A DNA stretch of 64,000 bases from Octopus sinensis (taxonomy: Eukaryota), in the NCBI RefSeq assembly GCF_006345805.1, contig NC_043003.1:84878001-84942000 (forward strand), written 5' to 3'. The position numbers and the translations under genes were made by a program. Shown piece after piece: positions 1 to 64,000 of this stretch (position 1 is the first letter of the stretch; each line of letters opens with the position of its first letter). Below the pieces are notes generated by a model that saw only the letters and a program-made list of their open reading frames with translations, searched no databases and had not been told where the DNA came from.

Positions 1-909
1 GAGACAATGTCCGTGAAGCACGTAATCGTCTGTTCCACGTAAATTTCCCAAAAGTTAAAACACTGATTTACAATAAGTTATACTTCAGTGTTTTAACAAA
101 GCAACAGGTAACAGTCTTTAAAGTATGTTACAAATATGTATCAATATATAGGGAATTACAACAAATTATTTTATAATATTTACAAAATATCAGAACATAA
201 ATATTTTCGTATTTTAATAATAGTTCGTAATGGACACATGAAGTGTTTCAAATATGAGCAGAGGTCGTGCTATTTTGTCGGAGACAAATTAAATCGATTA
301 CATTACATATGTTTTTATCAGATATTTCTAGATATTCATTTCCATATTGTGTGCTATTTATCATACAAAAGTTATTAATAATCCAACATTAGAGCACCCA
401 GATATAAAGAATGGTTTGATTCATAGCGATCATGTTGTCACTGAATGATACATTATTTCAACTGTTTCATATTCCTCCAAGCCAAGCATAACTATATCTA
501 TTTCTTTTACATTATGAAACTATATACTAAAACTATGTTTGCTAACTGTAATTTATAAACACTTAAGTTTCAATACTCTTTCAAAATGTGCGACGATATC
601 TACAATCTACACGTATATGCGTGCAACTTTCTAATTACTTAAAATTCATAATTTCTAACATTGTGATATTCATTAATATCACATCTCTTGAAAATGATAT
701 CATTGAGGATTTTTATATTTCATGTAATTCATATAATCACAGCATTTCAACGCATACCGAAGGGAACCAAATGACGAGCTGCTTAGGAATCTTATACCTA
801 TTAAACATTCTGTCATGTTTTTACATCAGGAAATTATGAATAAAAAGATGAATATTTCAATTATAAAACTTTTTGAGTGTTAACGTAATTATATATAAGA
901 ATCCCTTAG

Positions 910-939
910 CTGTTGAACTTGCTGAAGGATTGATTGCAG
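910..939 (-). pseudogene. 30-nt micro-exon with dead donor (AAINPSASST)
   Basis: tatttctag|CTGCAATCAATCCTTCAGCAAGTTCAACAG|ctaagg; the donor GT is replaced by CT. Confidence 0.7.
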
Positions 940-1874
940 CTAGAAATATATAAAATACATATTATTATACAAAGAATATCTGATGACAATATCATTTTCC
1001 GTAATAGATATTATGGATACACAACATATCTGTTTTATGTTTCCTCTAATAATAACATCAATAGCTCTCGATAAAATATACCTTTCACAAACTCCATCAG
1101 ATTTTTTCACTCAGAATGTTCCTGGAAATGTCTATATTTCATGTCATTCATATAATCGTAAATACTGCATCATTTTCAGAATCCTTTTTACATCCTACAC
1201 ATTTTCATTTCCTGCTCGGCTTAATTGACTAAACTCTATTATTATTTCTGGCTTTCTCTTCTGTTCATTATACTAACTACATTCGAAACCGAGACATCAT
1301 ATCCATGTCAGAAGCAAATATTTATTAGAGGTAATATTTGTAATGCATGTCATCTTTTGTTCTACATAGTTTTACCAAAGTTCAAACATTCATATACAAT
1401 GCCTCATTTTTCAGTGTTTCACCAAAGCAACAGGTAAAGTAAATTACAGATATGTATCAATATATAGCAACATACATCAATACTTATTGTTTAACATAAT
1501 TTTATAATATTTACAACGTTTCAAAACATAAATATTTTCGTATCTTTATAATAGTTCGTAACGAAAATATGAAGTGCTTCAAATATGGGCAGAGGTCGTG
1601 CAACTTTGTGGGTGATCAATTCAATCTTTTACATTAGGCCAAATTGTTGAGCGTGACTATATTTTTCCGTCTGGCACAGGAGCTAATGCATTGATAAACA
1701 TGCCGGCATTTCAATGCATACCGAAAAGGGACACATGATGGTCAACTCAGCATTTTGGCCACACGTTAAATATTCTGTCAGTTGCTTACCTCAGGAATCT
1801 ATCAATAAAGCGATGAATATTTTAATTGTAAAATTCATTGAAAATTAACTTATTTATATAAGAGCATCACTTAC

Positions 1875-24230
<22,356 letters not shown>

Positions 24231-33766: not shown

Positions 33767-33836
<70 letters not shown>
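33767..33836. repeat. (TA)n microsatellite at the left edge of the central insert
   Basis: Direct reading. Confidence 0.98.
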
Positions 33837-33839
<3 letters not shown>

Positions 33840-34003
33840 AATAAATCCAAATTTACAGGGAAAAAAAATCAGATTTAGGATTAAATCCAATTTTATAGTA
33901 AAATATTATAAAATATTATTAGAGACAAAACCACTATTTTGCAAAACAAACAAGGAAAGACTTAATCAATACATAAAATTTTAATAAATAGTCAAAAAAA
34001 CCG

Positions 34004-34046
34004 CCACTACAATCGTTTCTTGTCTTGATCGACAATCTTCAGGTGG
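34004..34046 (-). ncRNA. Minimal type I hammerhead ribozyme (Penelope-type)
   Basis: Exact reverse complement of 35432-35474. Confidence 0.8.
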
Positions 34047-34235
34047 ACTTCCAATCTTTCATATTTCTCTAACTCATTCCTCTTTTCTCTCCCTCTCTCT
34101 TTTTAATCCTAGGTGGTAGTTCAGGTACTGCTATGTAATGTTTTGAAGAATAATTGTGAAAATTTGTTTATATTACTCTTATTTGCTTTCCCATGGTTGC
34201 TTCACAGACACATATGAGCAATCTTGATCAGAATA

Positions 34236-34590
34236 TTAAGAAGTCAGCAAAAAGTTCAGTAAAGAATCATCATTTGAAACTGTAGATTCTTTGTTCAAAA
34301 GTGCTTTCATTTCACATTTCACCTGCCAGGATGGTTGTTTTTTGGTCTTTTTGTGTTTTGAATTGCGTTGCTTTTCCGAACTTATTGAAGATGCTTTCTT
34401 TTTGGAGGCCTTCTTTTTCTCAGATTTCATTTCTGACATAATTTCCATCACTAGCTGTTGTTTTTTCAACTTAGAATCTTCCACAGAATTGTCAGTGCTG
34501 TTTGAAGGAGTAGTCCACTTAATAGGTAACCGTTTCTTTCCTTTGTAACTATTTCTGCTATGGCACACTCGACATGTAAGGACCACTTTA
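34236..34590 (-). pseudogene. C18orf21: Inverted 3' partial copy of the C18orf21/RMP24-like frame
   Basis: Translation identical to the + strand copy from KVVLTCRVC to LLNFLLTS*. Confidence 0.8.
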
Positions 34591-34669
34591 CCACGTGTTT
34601 TAAATGAAAATAAATACGGCGGAATTTCTGGTCGACACAGCTGTGTACTGAAATTCAACGACAAATTAC

Positions 34670-35242
34670 AGGTTCAATGCTTTAAAGAACAATTCAAATG
34701 AAGAAAACAAATGTTGGTGCCAGACCTGTGGTACTTATTACTTTCCAAATAACTTAAGAGTAAGACTTTCACCCAAATTAACCCTGAATAAGCATATAAA
34801 GTCGTTGGTGAAACGATACATGCAGGATCCTGATTCACTAAAGACATGTCAACAATCTCTAGCACTTCACTATCTGAATGGAAGAAATAAAGTGGTCCTT
34901 ACATGTCGAGTGTGCCATAGCAGAAATAGTTACAAAGGAAAGAAACGGTTACCTATTAAGTGGACTACTCCTTCAAACAGCACTGACAATTCTGTGGAAG
35001 ATTCTAAGTTGAAAAAACAACAGCTAGTGATGGAAATTATGTCAGAAATGAAATCTGAGAAAAAGAAGGCCTCCAAAAAGAAAGCATCTTCAATAAGTTC
35101 GGAAAAGCAACGCAATTCAAAACACAAAAAGACCAAAAAACAACCATCCTGGCAGGTGAAATGTGAAATGAAAGCACTTTTGAACAAAGAATCTACAGTT
35201 TCAAATGATGATTCTTTACTGAACTTTTTGCTGACTTCTTAA
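34670..35242 (+). pseudogene. C18orf21: C18orf21/RMP24-like (UPF0711; Rpp21-like zinc protein) frame lacking its N-terminus; probable retrocopy
   Basis: Frame open from 34652: CQTC...NNLRVRLSPKLTLNKHIKSLVKR...KVVLTCRVC...MKALL...LNFL. This matches my recollection of human C18orf21 (CPYC..NSRVRLKPK..LLITCKTC..LKMLL..RNFL). There is no ATG before the first CxxC. Confidence 0.8.
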
Positions 35243-35431
35243 TATTCTGATCAAGATTGCTCATATGTGTCTGTGAAGCAACCATGGGAAAGCAAATAAG
35301 AGTAATATAAATAAATTTTCACAATTATTCTTCAAAACATTACATAGCAGTACCTGAACTACCACCTAGGATTAAAAAGAGAGAGGGAGAGAAAAGAGGA
35401 ATGAGTTAGAGAAATATGAAAGATTGGAAGT

Positions 35432-35474
35432 CCACCTGAAGATTGTCGATCAAGACAAGAAACGATTGTAGTGG
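35432..35474 (+). ncRNA. Minimal type I hammerhead ribozyme (Penelope-type)
   Basis: ccac-CTGAAGA-ttgtc/gatcaa/gacaa-GAAA-c/gatt/g-TA-gtgg: intact core, stems I and II, GUA cleavage triplet. Confidence 0.8.
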
Positions 35475-35847
35475 CGGTTTTTTTGACTATTTATTAAAAT
35501 TTTATGTATTGATTAAGTCTTTCCTTGTTTGTTTTGCAAAATAGTGGTTTTGTCTCTAATAATATTTTATATATATATATATATATACATATACAATGTA
35601 TATATATGTATATTATACACATATATACGTACATATGTTTCATTACTGAAAATCCTTCTCTTATTCCTTTAGTAACATAATTTTCTTGCGACACATTGTG
35701 ACGTAGCTAAGCAAGAAACATTAATAAATAAATAAAACCAGTCATATATTAATCCTACGAAAACAAACGGCTTTCTGAATCACGATAACTGATATTAATT
35801 GAAACAGCATGTTAGAACCTATTTCTTATAAGCAAAGACTCAACCAA

Positions 35848-57900: not shown

Positions 57901-60900
57901 AGATTCAGGTGAATGATTGATTGAAATGCTGATGATAAAGCATTTACGGTTATATGAATGGCCTGAAATATAGAATTTTCTAGAAAGATTGTAAGTGAAG
58001 AAATCTCATCCAGTTTGTGAAAGATTTATTTCATCAAAAACTCTTATTGTAATCATCAATGAAATTATTTTCAAGAGAGTAAATAATAATAAAAATTACA
58101 AAGTTACAAAGTATGAATTTAAGTAGTTACAAAATTTCACGCACGTAAGTGTAGATTTTGCACATTGTCGCAAATATTAAAATAATATTGAAACTTGTGT
58201 TTATAGATTGCTTTTAGCAAACCTAGTTTTTATATTGGTTTTTAATTGAAAAGCAAATAATTATAGTTATGCATGGTTTTGGAGAATATGGAGCAGTTGA
58301 ACAAATCATACCATTCTGTGACAAGATTAAAGCTATGCCTCACAGTATTGTTATATGTCAGAGCTCTAATGTTGCATTATTAATAGCTATTATATGATGA
58401 ATAGTAACCAAACTGGCAATGAATTCCGAGATATATCTGATAAAGTCATTAAATGATAATTCTGTATAAAGTAAACTGGATGTTAGTGTTACTGGTATGT
58501 CCCAATACCGATCTGTCTTGTTTTATATGGTAAATTACTGAGAAAGCTTCATGATAAAACCGGATGTCGTGTTTTCTTATAATGCGAAATATGTAATTAA
58601 AAAACTAACTTTCATATAAACAGAAAAAAATAATTAAAAAAACTAACAAAATTTCTTCTATATAAAATAACAATCATATACATTCCTTAGTGCTTATAGA
58701 ATCAATTGCACATAAGAACAATTTTCATAGGAAACTACACAATTAAGATAACGTAAATAACATTATCATACCTAAGAGATTGCCATGGAAATATTGCTTA
58801 TAAAATCACTCGTTCATTATAACGATTTTCATTGGGAATTCCATATTTTCTCATCTTGAGAGATAGCCTTCCATGACAATGATATTATATAAATTCGTAT
58901 TGAATGAAATGATAGCATGCCATTGAAGATATTATTATAGTAAACATAAAATGATATATTGTATATTATAATATACGTTATCAAATATGTCTTTGCTATC
59001 AGATTTTCTTTCTGTGATAATATGTATTTTATATATTTCTAGAATTGCTGCTAATAAAACCTCTGCAAAAGATAAATTATGTTCTTATATAAATATGTTA
59101 ATAATCAAAGAAATTTATAATTAAAATCTTCATCGTTTAATTGATAAATTCTTGAGGTGACCACATGACGGAATATTGAACGCGTCGAACAAAATACTGA
59201 GCAGTTTGATATCTGTCACTTTTCTGTATGCCGCCGAGATTATCATTGCAATAACTCATGTCCCAGGGGGTAAAATAAAGTTACACTTAAATATATGGGC
59301 TAATGTAAACGACTGAACAGTATCTTCTACAACATTGTTGGACCTGTGCACATATTTGAAGCAATTCATATTTTCATTAAGACCTATTATAAAAATACGA
59401 AAATATTTATGTTTTGAAATGTTGTAAATATTATAAAATGGAGTCAAACAATAAGTATTGATGTATGTTGCTATATATTGATACAGATATGAAATTAACT
59501 ACAAAAAATGTTACGTGTTGATTTGGTGAAGACACTGAAGTATAAGTTATTATAAAACAGTTCTTTGAACTTTGGGAAAACTACGTGGAACAGATGACAT
59601 ATATCTAAAATATTGTCTCTAATGAATATTTATTACTGACATGAGAATCCTCATGATTTCTCAGTTTCGGAATTGGTCGGTGTTACGAATAGAATAGAAA
59701 GCCAATAATAATAGATTTAGGATAATTAAGCAGAGCGAGAACTGAAATTGTGTAAAGAGTAATAATACTCAGGTGAATGATTGATTGAAATGCTGATGAT
59801 AAAGTATTTACGGTCATGCGAATGGCATGAAATATAGAGTTTTCTAGAGAGATTGTAAGTGAAGTAATCTCATCCAGTATGTGAAAGATATATTTCATCA
59901 AGAACTCTTATTGTAATCATCAATGAATTATTTTCAAGTGAGGAGATAATAATGAAAATTACAAAGTTACTAAGTATGGATTTAAGTGAAGAAATCTCAT
60001 CCAGTTTGGTGTTGATATTGCTATTGCATTAAACGATTTTCATTGGAAACCACATATCTTTTCATCTTAATATATATCGTCCATGTCAATTATAATATAT
60101 AAAGTAGTACGGAAATAAGGGATAGCAATCGATTGAAGAAATTATTAGAGCAATCATAAAAAGATATATAGTATATTCCAAATTTATATTACGGAATATC
60201 AATTTGCAATCAGATATGTTTACGTAATAAAATGTATTTTAAATATTTCCAGACACTGGCCCAACTCCTGGAAGAGCAAGAGGTAAATGTTGCTCATATA
60301 TAAATAAGTTAATTTTCAATGAATTTTATAATTAAAATATTCATCGCAAAATACTGAGTTGAGTATATTGATACATATCTGTAATTTACTTTACCTGTTG
60401 CATTGGTGAAACACTTAAGTATAAATTATTGTGTAACAAAGTTTGAACTTTGGTAAAACTTTATGGAACAAAAGATGACATGCATTACCAATATTACCTC
60501 TAATAAATATTTGCTTCTGGCATGGATACGATGTCACAGTTTCAAATGTGGTTAGCATAATGAGCAGATGATAATGCCAGAAATAATAATAGAGTTTGGT
60601 CAATTAATCCGAGCAGAAACTGAAAATATGTAGGATGTAAAAAGGATTCAGGAAATGATGCAGTATTTATGGTTATATGAATTACATGAAATATAGAAAT
60701 TTCCAGAAACATTGTGAGTGATGAAATCTGATCGAGTTTGTGAAAGATATATTTTATCGAGGGCTCATAACAAATCATCAATAATATCATTTTTAGGTGA
60801 TGTGAAATTAATGAAAATTACAATGTTAGAAAGTATGAATTTTAAGTAATTAGAAAGTTGCACGCACATACGTGTAGATTGTGCATATCGTCGCACATTT

Positions 60901-63390
60901 TGAAATAGTATTGAAACTTAAGTGTTTAAGAAACTTAAGAAAAGTTGTAAATATTATAAAATTATGTGAAACAATAAGTATTGGTGTATTTTGCTAAATA
61001 TTGATACATAACTGTAATTTACTTTACCTGTTGCTTTGGTCAAACACTGAAGTATATGTTATTGTAAATCAATATTTGAACTTTGGCAAAACAACACTGA
61101 AAAACAGATGACATGCATTACAAATACTTCCTCTAATAAATATTTACTACTGACATGGATATGTTGTCTCAGTTTCGAATGTAGTTAGCATAATGAGCAG
61201 AAGATAATGCCAGAAATAACAATAGAGTTTAGTCAATTAAACCGAGCAGAATCTGAAAATGTGTAGGATGTGAAAAGGATTCAGGTAATGATGCAGTATT
61301 TACAGTTATATGAATGTCATGAAATATAGAAATTTCCAGAAAAATAGTGAGTGAAGAATCTGATCGAGTTTGTGAAAGATATATTTTATCGAGAGCTCTT
61401 ACCGTAATTATCAATGATATCATTTTCAAGAGATGTGATAATAATAAATATTACAATGTTAGAATGCTATGAATCAAAATATTCTTTATATCTGCGTGCT
61501 ATAATATAGGGCTTTTAATGACATTTGTATGATTAATAGCACAGAATATGGTCATGAATATCTAGAAATATCTGATAAATACATATGTGATGTAAACGAT
61601 TGAATTTATCTCCAACAAAATCACCCGACATCTGCCCATATTTGAAGCACTTCATATGTCCATTACGAACTATTATAAAAATACGAAAATATTTATGTTC
61701 TGAAATTTTGTAAATATTATGAAACGTATTGTTGTAGTTCGCTATATATTGATACAAATCTGTAACTTACTTTATAGAATATTACTCGTTGCTTTGTTCA
61801 AACACTGAAGTATAAGTAATTGTAAATAAGTGTTTTTTCTTTGAGAAAACTACGTTGAACAGAAAATTACGTGCTTCGCGGACGGTGTCTCTGAGAAATA
61901 TTTATTACTGACCTGGATATACTGTATTAGTTTCAGAAATGGTTAGAATGTTAAATGGAATAGAAAGCCGATAATGATAATATTTTTACGATAATGAAAC
62001 AGAGCTAGAACTGAAAATTGTGGAAGAAGTAAAACATTTCAGGTGAATGTTTGATTGAATTTACGGTCATATGAATGGCCTGAATATAGAATTTTCTAGA
62101 AAAATTGTAAGTGAAGAAATCTTATACAGTTCGTGAAACTTATATTTCATCAAGTACTCTTATTGTAATCATCAATGAAATCATTTTCAAGAATGGAGAA
62201 CATAATGAAAATTTCAAAATTACAAAATATAAATTTAAGTAGTCACAAAATTACACGCACGTAAGTGTAGATTCTGCACATTGTCGCAAATTGTAAAACT
62301 GTTTTGAAATTAAGTGTTTATAGATTGCTTTTTGTAAAGCTCGTTTTATTATATTGCTTTATAACTGAAAACAAATAGTTATAGTTATGCATGGTTTTGG
62401 AGAATATGTAGCAGTTGAACGAATCATACCATCATCTGACAACATTAAAGCTATGCACTACAGCTATATAGCTGTCCATGACATTGATATTACATGAATT
62501 AGTATTAAATGAAACGATGACATGCGATTGAATATATTATTAAGCATAAAAATGATACACTGTATATTCATAACATCTATTATGGAAAATGACCTTGTAA
62601 TTTGATTTTCTTTGTATACTAATACGTATTTTATGTATTTCTAGTCCCAGTCACTACTACTAACACTCCAAAAGGTAATTGATGCTTATATATAATTATG
62701 TAATTACTCAAAAAATGTTATAATTATAATATTCAATAATTTATTCATAATTTCTTGATGTAACCGCAAGGGAGAATCTTTAACAGGTATAACAAATTCT
62801 TAAGCAGCTCGTCATCTGTCTCCTTTCGGTATGTCTTGAAATGCCGCCTACATTATCATTGCATTACCTCCTGTTGTAGGCGGTAAAATAAATTTGCACT
62901 GAACTATTTGGTTTCATGTAAACTATTGAACAGATCCCCAAGAAAATTACTGGACCTCTGCCCATGTTTGCAGCACATAATTTAAAATATGTAATTAACA
63001 AAACGAATAATATTTATTTGATATTAAATACGGATATTATATGCCGTGTTCCTTTTTTCGATGTTGAAGGTGAGGTAAATATACTTATCATAGTTATGTC
63101 ATTGCATTTCAATTACTGTTGGTAGTGCTAATGCATTAAACGATTTTCATTGGAAAGCACATTTATTTTCATCTTAATATATAGTCGTCCATATAAATTA
63201 TATTATATAAAATAGTATGGAAACAAATTATAGCATGCGATTGCAGAAATTATTTGAGTAATCATAAAAAGTTATATAATATATTTCAAATATTTATTAC
63301 AGAATATGAATTTGCAATGAGATTTGTTTGTATAATAATATGTATTTTAAATATTTTCAGACAATAGATCAGCAGGTGGAGGTGTACCAA
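45114..63390 (+). CDS. Putative micro-exon gene, right copy (spliced, 3' end outside window): MKTIYLLIVVVAIVS-GVTSTNGVQN-DTGPTPGRAR-VPVTTTNTPK-DNRSAGGGVP...
   Basis: A phase-1 signal exon is followed by four AG/GT-bounded 30-nt exons open in phase 1. The joining is inferred. Confidence 0.8.
45433..45618 (+). mobile_element. 186-bp right-arm-only element with hammerhead-like motif (45483-45520)
   Basis: Flanked by TACATA direct repeats (single copy in the left arm); tcttt-CTGTTGA-a-gagc/gtag/gctc-GAAA-cgtt-aaaga. Confidence 0.7.
45920..46690 (-). mobile_element. R4/Dong-like 3' fragment (mirror of 23010-23640, ~150 bp longer)
   Basis: EGYAFAIQEQDIAT...CKLC ORF at 46212-46601. Confidence 0.82.
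47171..47912 (-). mobile_element. Tc1/mariner deletion derivative (mirror)
   Basis: WPSKSPDLNPLDFSVW motif, TIRs and TA ends. Confidence 0.88.
48950..49690 (+). mobile_element. Penelope-like GIY-YIG 3' fragment, right arm only
   Basis: VYNIRC..C...AYIAETSRSIAERLNMH. Confidence 0.75.
50240..51866 (-). mobile_element. CR1/L2-like LINE RT region, degenerate
   Basis: ATGPDGL, NYSPISLSS..TMERIV, HGFRPGRSC and YADGTK motifs. Confidence 0.88.
52386..52420 (-). ncRNA. Degenerate hammerhead-like motif (mirror of 19392-19426)
   Basis: Exact reverse complement. Confidence 0.55.
52990..55220 (-). mobile_element. Degenerate Penelope-like element (mirror)
   Basis: WKRFLDDCF, YIGETNNSL and CGVRRCGT motifs. 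Confidence 0.92.
55240..55397 (-). mobile_element. SINE (second family), right arm only
   Basis: Reverse complement of gcggcgagctggcagaaacgttagcacgccgggcgaaatg... Confidence 0.85.
57209..57238 (+). CDS. 30-nt micro-exon (GVTSTNGVQN)
   Basis: atttctag|GCGTAACCAGTACTAATGGAGTTCAAAACG|gtaaat. Confidence 0.8.
59043..59071 (+). pseudogene. Dead 29-nt micro-exon
   Basis: atttctag|AATTGCTGCTAATAAAACCTCTGCAAAAG|ataaat. Confidence 0.7.
60253..60282 (+). CDS. 30-nt micro-exon (DTGPTPGRAR)
   Basis: tatttccag|ACACTGGCCCAACTCCTGGAAGAGCAAGAG|gtaaat. Confidence 0.8.
62645..62674 (+). CDS. 30-nt micro-exon (VPVTTTNTPK)
   Basis: tatttctag|TCCCAGTCACTACTACTAACACTCCAAAAG|gtaatt. Confidence 0.8.
63361..63390 (+). 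CDS. 30-nt micro-exon (DNRSAGGGVP)
   Basis: tattttcag|ACAATAGATCAGCAGGTGGAGGTGTACCAA|gtaagt. Confidence 0.82.
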
Positions 63391-64000
63391 GTAAGTGATG
63401 CTCATATATAAATAAGTTAATTTTCAAAGAATTTTATAATTAAAATATTCATCGCCTTATTGTTAGATTCTTGAAGTAAGCAACTGACAGAATATTCAAC
63501 GTGTCGCCAAAATTTTGTGTTGATCATCTCTTTCTTTTCGGTTTACGTTGAAAACTAAGTGGAACAGAAGATTACGTGCTTCACGGACATTGTCTCTAAG
63601 AAATATTTATTACTGATTTGGATAGAAAGCCAAGAATGATAATAGATTTACGATAATTGATCAAAACTTGAAATGAAATTGTGTAAGAAAGAAAAAGTTT
63701 CAGGTGAACGATTGATTGAAATTTTGATGATAAAGTATTTACATTCATATGAATGGCGTAAAATATAGAATGTTCCGGAAAAACTTTGAAGAAATCTGAT
63801 CCAGTTTATGAACGATATATTGAATCAAAACTCTTACCGTAATCACCAATAAAATATTTTTCAAGAGAGGAGATTATTATGAAAATTGTAATGTTTCAAT
63901 GCATGAATTTTAAGCAGTTAGAAAATTACACGCATGTAAGTTTAGATATTGTTATGAATTTAAAAATAGTATTGAAACTTACGTGTTTTTAAAATTACAT

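Follow-up and report, generated by a model that had tools for sequence, protein, structure and literature searches.

Host exons of C18orf21/RMP24 probably joined by splicing to the terminal exon of a Penelope-like element in Octopus sinensis

We analysed a 64,000-nucleotide (nt) stretch of the Octopus sinensis genome (the window; NCBI RefSeq assembly GCF_006345805.1, contig NC_043003.1, forward-strand positions 84,878,001 to 84,942,000), which lies on contig C7; C4, C5, C14, and similar numbers denote contigs of the same 2.72-Gb assembly. The window holds an insert in which spliced exons of the host gene C18orf21/RMP24 run directly into the terminal exon of a Penelope-like element (PLE). Our reading, to which we give a probability of about 0.88, is that the host RNA was joined at a splice donor to the acceptor of the element and that the product was then inserted in the Penelope manner, whether donor and acceptor stood on one RNA or on two. 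In the parent gene, the last copied exon (exon 7) is followed by an intron-type GTAAGA (AAAG/gtaaga), and in the copy it is followed by base 1 of the element tail, which in the element stands behind an acceptor (TTTTAG/ATTGG). This junction is at 35422/35423 on the plus strand and is mirrored at 34056/34055.

A reading made previously from the letters of the window (the sequence-only reading) had described an inverted repeat with a 297-nt spacer, near-identical arms, (TA)n flanks, and an extension of about 70 bp on the left tail, and all of these features were confirmed. The arms (33907-34590 and 34888-35571, 684 nt each, around the spacer) agree at 683 of 684 positions, with the sole mismatch at 35312, and the left arm has 70 additional nt (33837-33906). 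From left to right, a (TA)n target run (33767-33836) is followed on the minus strand by the long form of the element terminal exon (33837-34055; 219 nt including the extension), which matches the acceptor-to-open reading frame (ORF) segment of full elements, and by the inverted host exons 7, 6, 5, and 4 with 7 nt of exon 3 (34056-34590, minus). The inversion junction (34587-34591) has a 4-nt microhomology, TTTA, shared with the parent sequence that immediately precedes the copied portion of exon 1. The plus strand then carries parent exon 1, cut at an upstream donor (34591-34671); exons 2-6 in spliced form (34672-35341; 32, 191, 103, 100, and 244 nt), coding for C18orf21/RMP24 without its N-terminus and with the stop codon of the frame at 35240-35242; the 81-nt read-through exon 7 (35342-35422, from C5:44196991-44197071); and the short, 149-nt form of the element terminal exon (35423-35571). 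The right (TA)n run starts at about 35568 and extends to 35587.

The host identity proposed by the sequence-only reading was upheld. The frame at 34652-35242 is open from stop to stop for 196 codons, contains both CxxC pairs (CQTC and CRVC), lacks a start as had been noted, and matches Pfam PF15719 (DUF4674) at E 7.9e-13; human C18orf21 was the sole PDB match at E<=1 and is a weak one (E 0.025). C18orf21 is described as the RNase MRP subunit RMP24 (PMC12819141). The 832 host nt of the insert map to seven exons on the minus strand of C5 (44,196,991-44,224,030) with 9 differences, and each of the six GT-AG introns of this parent, which had been sought as a check on the frame, is removed in the copy. 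The AG at 34670-34671, previously taken as a possible acceptor of a single native exon, is not an acceptor but the end of parent exon 1 at a donor. Splicing from this upstream donor within exon 1 left out of the copy 555 nt that include the true start codon and 51 codons; the 15-codon upstream ORF left in the exon 1 part (34604-34651) is in frame and stops at 34649-34651. Judged by these alignments, the insert is a processed pseudogene of C18orf21/RMP24 and not the native locus. The label retrogene was too strong for a copied isoform without the start codon and the first 51 codons: a functional retrogene needs a complete ORF with a start, the start-bearing 555 nt are skipped here, and the locus itself is probably a dead pseudogene.

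Exon 7 lies 16 kb beyond exon 6 in the parent, and thus 35342-35422, part of what had been called the 3' untranslated region (UTR), is a separate exon. It overlaps in antisense the acceptor and start of an exon of another gene, cystathionine beta-synthase-like by its translated peptide. Contigs of runs X6 and X11 (RNA by our guess, as no listed run was recorded as RNA) cover exons 2-6 and end there, one extending into intron 6, and X6 retains about 550 additional letters at the exon 1 donor. Because these contigs stop just past exon 6, exon 7 is likely reached only through read-through transcription. Intron 6 of the parent also holds a 5'-truncated Penelope-like copy in sense (C5 about 44,200,400-44,201,900, minus; 481 codons open). 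It was rejected as the source of the tail on two grounds: it is a member of another family (57% over 95 aa), and exon 7 lies downstream of it.

That an ordinary processed pseudogene was made by a long interspersed element (LINE), with the PLE inserted beside it later, is extremely unlikely. LINE-like ORFs do occur in the flanks we fetched, and nothing more specific speaks for this route. The copy has no poly(A) tail and stops at an internal donor rather than at the usual 3' end (the RNA-like contigs end past exon 6), and host and tail sequences were duplicated together in both arms. Neither a poly(A) tail nor a target-site duplication was visible at the insert, although a duplication could hide in the TA runs; both ends consist of element tail and (TA)n, unlike a LINE-type retrocopy.

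We give equally little credence to an assembly artefact from a fold-back read, or to this being the native locus. The window itself is a large palindrome, and the short-read runs X1 and X2 may be the source of the assembly, in which case they speak against a misjoin but are silent on other individuals. Nevertheless, the arms differ by one base and in tail length, the parent is present on C5 and the insert is thus not the sole locus, X1 contigs span the exon 5/6 and 6/7 joins without a mismatch, and the same layout recurs with other cargoes. The sequence-only reading had named lack of read support for the inner inverted repeat as a point that would count against it; one X2 contig spans the inversion point, reaching 92 letters to one side and 26 to the other, the shorter being below the 31-letter bar of the tool.

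The tail was traced to the element by its first 29 nt, which have 2,823 exact copies in the genome (control: 0), 1,106 of them preceded by TTAG. Among the first 30 tail loci, 17 retain the AT-rich acceptor, 12 are self-spliced, and 1 is of another kind; the 12 self-spliced loci carry the sequence that, in the full element, stands before a GTAAGT donor (GACTT/GTAAGT) located 1.8 or 2.8 kb upstream. The coexistence of acceptor-keeping and self-spliced copies indicates that the element uses this acceptor itself and that its spliced RNA is copied into the genome. TA-rich runs end all 30 sampled tail copies, and the family has two fixed end points, at about tail bases 150 and 230. The ends of the RMP24 insert are thus Penelope-like, as had been proposed, with the two end points typical of this tail. 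The tail was absent from the 3' UTR of the parent, where it had been expected, and is instead the terminal exon of the element.

In full elements the tail lies directly upstream of a reverse transcriptase (RT) ORF with a C-terminal GIY-YIG region. Both were recognised by visual inspection of the translations, which in one copy fall into two frames of 519 and 322 aa; a Pfam search of the RT part returned no match. The motifs DKT, CxCx5C, CxxC, and CxH are present, KWK stands in place of RWK, and no CCHH was seen. The family inserts in (TA)n with an optional tail and inverted partial copies, measures 7.3 kb from tail to tail at one locus (L217), and has an Asn-rich linker and a repeat-rich 3'-UTR intron whose acceptor is 9 nt before the hammerhead motif described below. 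These features fit a young PLE of the Hydra type, a clade call that rests on motifs. Short tandem arrays of the tail and the first 60-190 nt of the ORF were also met (L086/L087, L131/L132, L141/L142, L144). They were made by internal deletions and are retrozyme-like derivatives, retrozymes being described as derivatives consisting of the pseudo-long terminal repeat (pLTR) alone (10.64898/2026.07.22.740005).

The sequence-only reading had placed hammerhead ribozymes at both ends, of which the motif stands in both arms while Rfam and free folding lend no support to the ribozyme. A minimal type-I layout (core boxes and 11 Watson-Crick pairs in helices I, II, and a helix III of 1-2 bp) fits 35432-35474 on the plus strand, with a predicted cut after 35470, and its mirror at 34004-34046 on the minus strand. 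The layout is intact in 24 of 30 tail copies, which were chosen by exact match to the first half of the motif. Rfam found no hammerhead at the gathering score or at E<=10, and the motif folded freely no better than shuffles (z 0.15 and 0.13). The hammerhead is best called a sequence motif rather than a demonstrated ribozyme.

A screen for other host ORFs with the same tail, suggested by the sequence-only reading, was productive. A pattern search found V-AG (A/C/G-AG) ahead of the tail in 30 matches and B-G (C/G/T-G) in 20, together corresponding to 38 insertions, of which 10 had element-derived upstream sequence and 28, including the RMP24 insert, had foreign sequence. One further foreign junction, ending in GA and lying outside these patterns, brings the total to at least 29; the enumeration covered V-AG and B-G ends, and two pairs have a common cargo. 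Parents were sought for five of the 29 cargoes and found for four, giving five located junctions: RMP24 exon 7 on C5, a four-exon transcript on C4 (AAAG/gtattt), two exon ends (C and D) of a C14 transcript, and a HAD-phosphatase transcript of four exons. All five are exact exon ends followed by GT, the remaining donors being GAAG/gtaggg, ATGA/gtgagt, and TGGG/gtgagt. A further 22 ends were also compared with fetched DNA. Informative homologues came up for three repeat-derived ends, and they mostly go on with GT: in 14 of 17 redundant hits for two of these ends, and as GTAAGT in a copy 99.3% alike for the third.

These junctions bear on a template switch, in which the RT of the element would pass, with no splicing, from the element RNA to a host RNA where the two share a short AG microhomology. 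Microhomology joins are common in the element family, including at the inversion point of the RMP24 insert, and 19 of the 28 foreign ends finish in AG. However, a switch gives no reason to choose a host donor and the element acceptor together, as five of five located junctions do, including those ending ATGA and TGGG. Exon D of the C14 transcript ends in ATGA, which has no homology to the TAG of the acceptor, and an AG switch is thus ruled out there. This case (ATGA/gtgagt) largely refutes template switching, which we regard as very unlikely.

Several observations weigh against joining by splicing. No chimeric RNA was seen, and parent searches cover 5 of the 29 cargoes. The contigs guessed to be RNA (X6, X11) do not cover exon 7, which says nothing about whether the copy is expressed. 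The search patterns themselves select a G before the tail, so that a bias toward exon ends is not measurable from them, and in one case (C2:66.80 Mb) a deletion internal to the element hit the acceptor with no donor involved. A search of 58 kb upstream did not place exon A of the C14 gene, leaving the junction of its C7 copy with no located donor, and no parent was found in the assembly for a rhodanese cargo, which may be unassembled, split into short exons, or present as a sole copy. This rhodanese-domain ORF is joined to the tail at C2:103,191,131-103,191,599. Another captured ORF of 220 codons ends at the tail (L224/L225, C7:88.90 Mb; L237, C11115), resembles by eye a signal peptide with immunoglobulin (Ig)-like domains, and could encode a short secreted protein. 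The first exon of the C4 cargo (138 nt) belongs to a young family of 404-bp tandem repeats, for which at least 80 matches were found, e.g., at C7:75.73 Mb.

Splice joining of host and element RNA, the reading we prefer, would proceed in four steps. The element has a long 3'-UTR intron, and intron-keeping and self-spliced copies are both in the genome. In the second step, a read-through, non-coding host isoform with a donor lacking its own acceptor would be spliced to the acceptor of the element. The 230-nt tail would then bring two start points for reverse transcription, making the chimera a substrate for which poly(A) is unnecessary. Finally, the element protein would cut (TA)n and one cDNA would be begun at each start point on opposite strands, the shorter (754 nt) meeting the longer (981 nt) at the 4-nt microhomology to give the inverted repeat. 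Two other inserts pair an arm copied from unspliced element RNA with an arm copied from a chimera, as fits separate priming of the two arms. A decayed Gypsy-like RT fragment was captured twice (L109 on C22 and L113 on C10642), each time opposite an unspliced element arm, and a 99% match to it (C9443:12,681-13,366) lies antisense in an intron of the captured HAD-phosphatase gene.

The sequence-only reading had pictured a host transcript with a PLE tail, moved by PLE machinery with no poly(A). A host transcript copy with PLE ends is indeed what we found; that the tail was apparently joined by splicing, with a host-element chimera as the copied RNA, and that this recurs at many loci were not foreseen.

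Whether donor and acceptor were on two RNAs or on one is close to balanced. Trans-splicing between two RNAs is slightly favoured, at about even odds. The alternative, somewhat below even, is cis trapping, in which another haplotype, or one now lost, would have carried an element copy in sense downstream of each parent, as in the geometry known for SVA elements; it competes only with the trans step and not with splice capture. In this haploid assembly, none of the three anchored parents has an acceptor-bearing sense copy downstream, the distances read being 393 kb on C5, 145 kb on C4, and, from exon D onward, 312 kb on C14; the sole hammerhead-bearing copy met there is antisense and self-spliced. 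Three captures of the C14 gene, each at a different exon end, carry tails of two subfamilies (copies on C5, C12, and C7): the C5 and C12 tails are one substitution apart and the C7 copy has the marks of the other subfamily. It is the lack of a downstream acceptor copy, together with the two tail subfamilies on the C14 gene, that favours trans-splicing. Cis trapping would require a second trap in the same gene for the C7 copy, and it is also disfavoured by the C12 copy, which matches the assembled C14 exons without a difference over 489 nt (100% identity).

On the other side, the family is young with its 1,106 acceptor-bearing copies, introns here reach 94 kb, and cis splicing is generally far more efficient than trans. 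Other points tell against the trans step directly. The near-identical tails of the C5 and C12 copies are what one trap would give. Eight sites that are shared by the arms or lie outside them distinguish the RMP24 copy from the assembled parent, and X6 and X11 bear the letter of the copy at two of the eight; the source haplotype was thus not the assembled one and could have carried a trap. The lack of a nearby acceptor is also the default, as 553 copies per strand in 2.72 Gb give about 3% per 150 kb, and two cargoes map to one unplaced 61-kb contig with 23 and 13 kb readable downstream. Also somewhat below even odds is a specific form of the trans reading, in which an acceptor-only element RNA would be trans-spliced onto unpaired donors of unlinked host pre-mRNAs as a 'spliced trailer' that marks transcripts for reverse transcription.

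Comparison with known systems, as far as the cited passages of each report go, shows precedents in other element classes. In SVA exon-trapping, or 5' transduction by splicing (SVA_F1-MAST2 and pt_SVA_D6-STK40), a host exon is likewise spliced to a retroelement acceptor and carried by later retrotransposition, but L1 copies SVA, with poly(A), target duplications, and most of the SVA retained (PMC6139936). The Penelope case keeps only the 150-230-nt terminal exon, whose acceptor is regularly used by the element itself, and its inserts lack poly(A) and form inverted repeats in (TA)n. LINE-1/mRNA chimeras (Law and Burns, PMC11838501) also have exons ending at donors with long downstream introns; 15 of 17 source loci had no intronic element, and trans-splicing was proposed there but not shown. 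They involve another element class with L1 acceptors that are cryptic or absent in several cases, whereas the Penelope cargoes all stand on one base and the same gene recurs on different tail subfamilies.

Within PLEs, Penelope enzymes of Adineta vaga moved host sequence with pLTR ends, but that gene kept all its introns between two pLTRs with a target duplication, and the authors leaned to an antisense template (PMC3846280). The RMP24 copy has no introns and its join is a splice junction, which together require a sense, spliced template. PLEs of the Hydra clade share DKT, the CxCx5C linker, endonuclease CxxC and CxH, the hammerhead, and (TA)n targets, but are described as under 3 kb in general, though not strictly, whereas the octopus family is about 7.3 kb; the cited part of that report does not mention exon capture (PMC8557442). 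In Penelope of Drosophila virilis, an intron ends at hammerhead helix I with the acceptor beside the hammerhead (PMC4209133), and PAc has two RT start sites with an optional tail between them and both strands extended (PMC11167929), the two start points matching the two tail lengths of the octopus element. Host capture is not reported in the cited parts of either paper, and the intron of the octopus element is 1.8-2.8 kb. An octopus repeat annotation lists recently active Penelope families and, in the portion cited, leaves splicing unmentioned (PMC13282606). We found no report of splice capture by a PLE in the open-access literature; the precedents are SVA exon-trapping and the L1-mRNA chimeras.

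The surroundings of the insert are themselves repetitive. The window is a palindrome of about 49 kb (11335-33295 and 37459-60274), with arms mostly 94-98% alike and the insert in its 4.2-kb unique spacer. As the palindrome arms have diverged more than the insert arms, the insert is likely the younger of the two. Tandem units of about 1,756 bp, 90-97% alike and inverted between the two sides, occupy 445-12800 and 58000-64000, and contain no frame of at least 170 codons.

The findings describe a concrete and recurrent way of making retrocopies without poly(A) or LINEs, with products that would be misinterpreted in standard screens for retrocopies. Taken together, the copies spliced within the element and those spliced to host exons show that the element copies sense, spliced RNA. 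A sense, spliced template bears on why PLEs keep introns, the choice between antisense and unspliced-sense templates being left undecided in the cited part of PMC3846280. Unlike in L1 chimeras, the single fixed junction base eases a genome-wide census and a test of cis against trans joining. If the 'spliced trailer' proposal is true, tens of host exon sets would have been copied into hairpin-shaped, poly(A)-less inserts, some of them having a start codon and ending in a new C-terminus, as in the Ig-domain, HAD-phosphatase, and rhodanese cases; novel short proteins could result, or double-stranded RNA directed at the parent genes.
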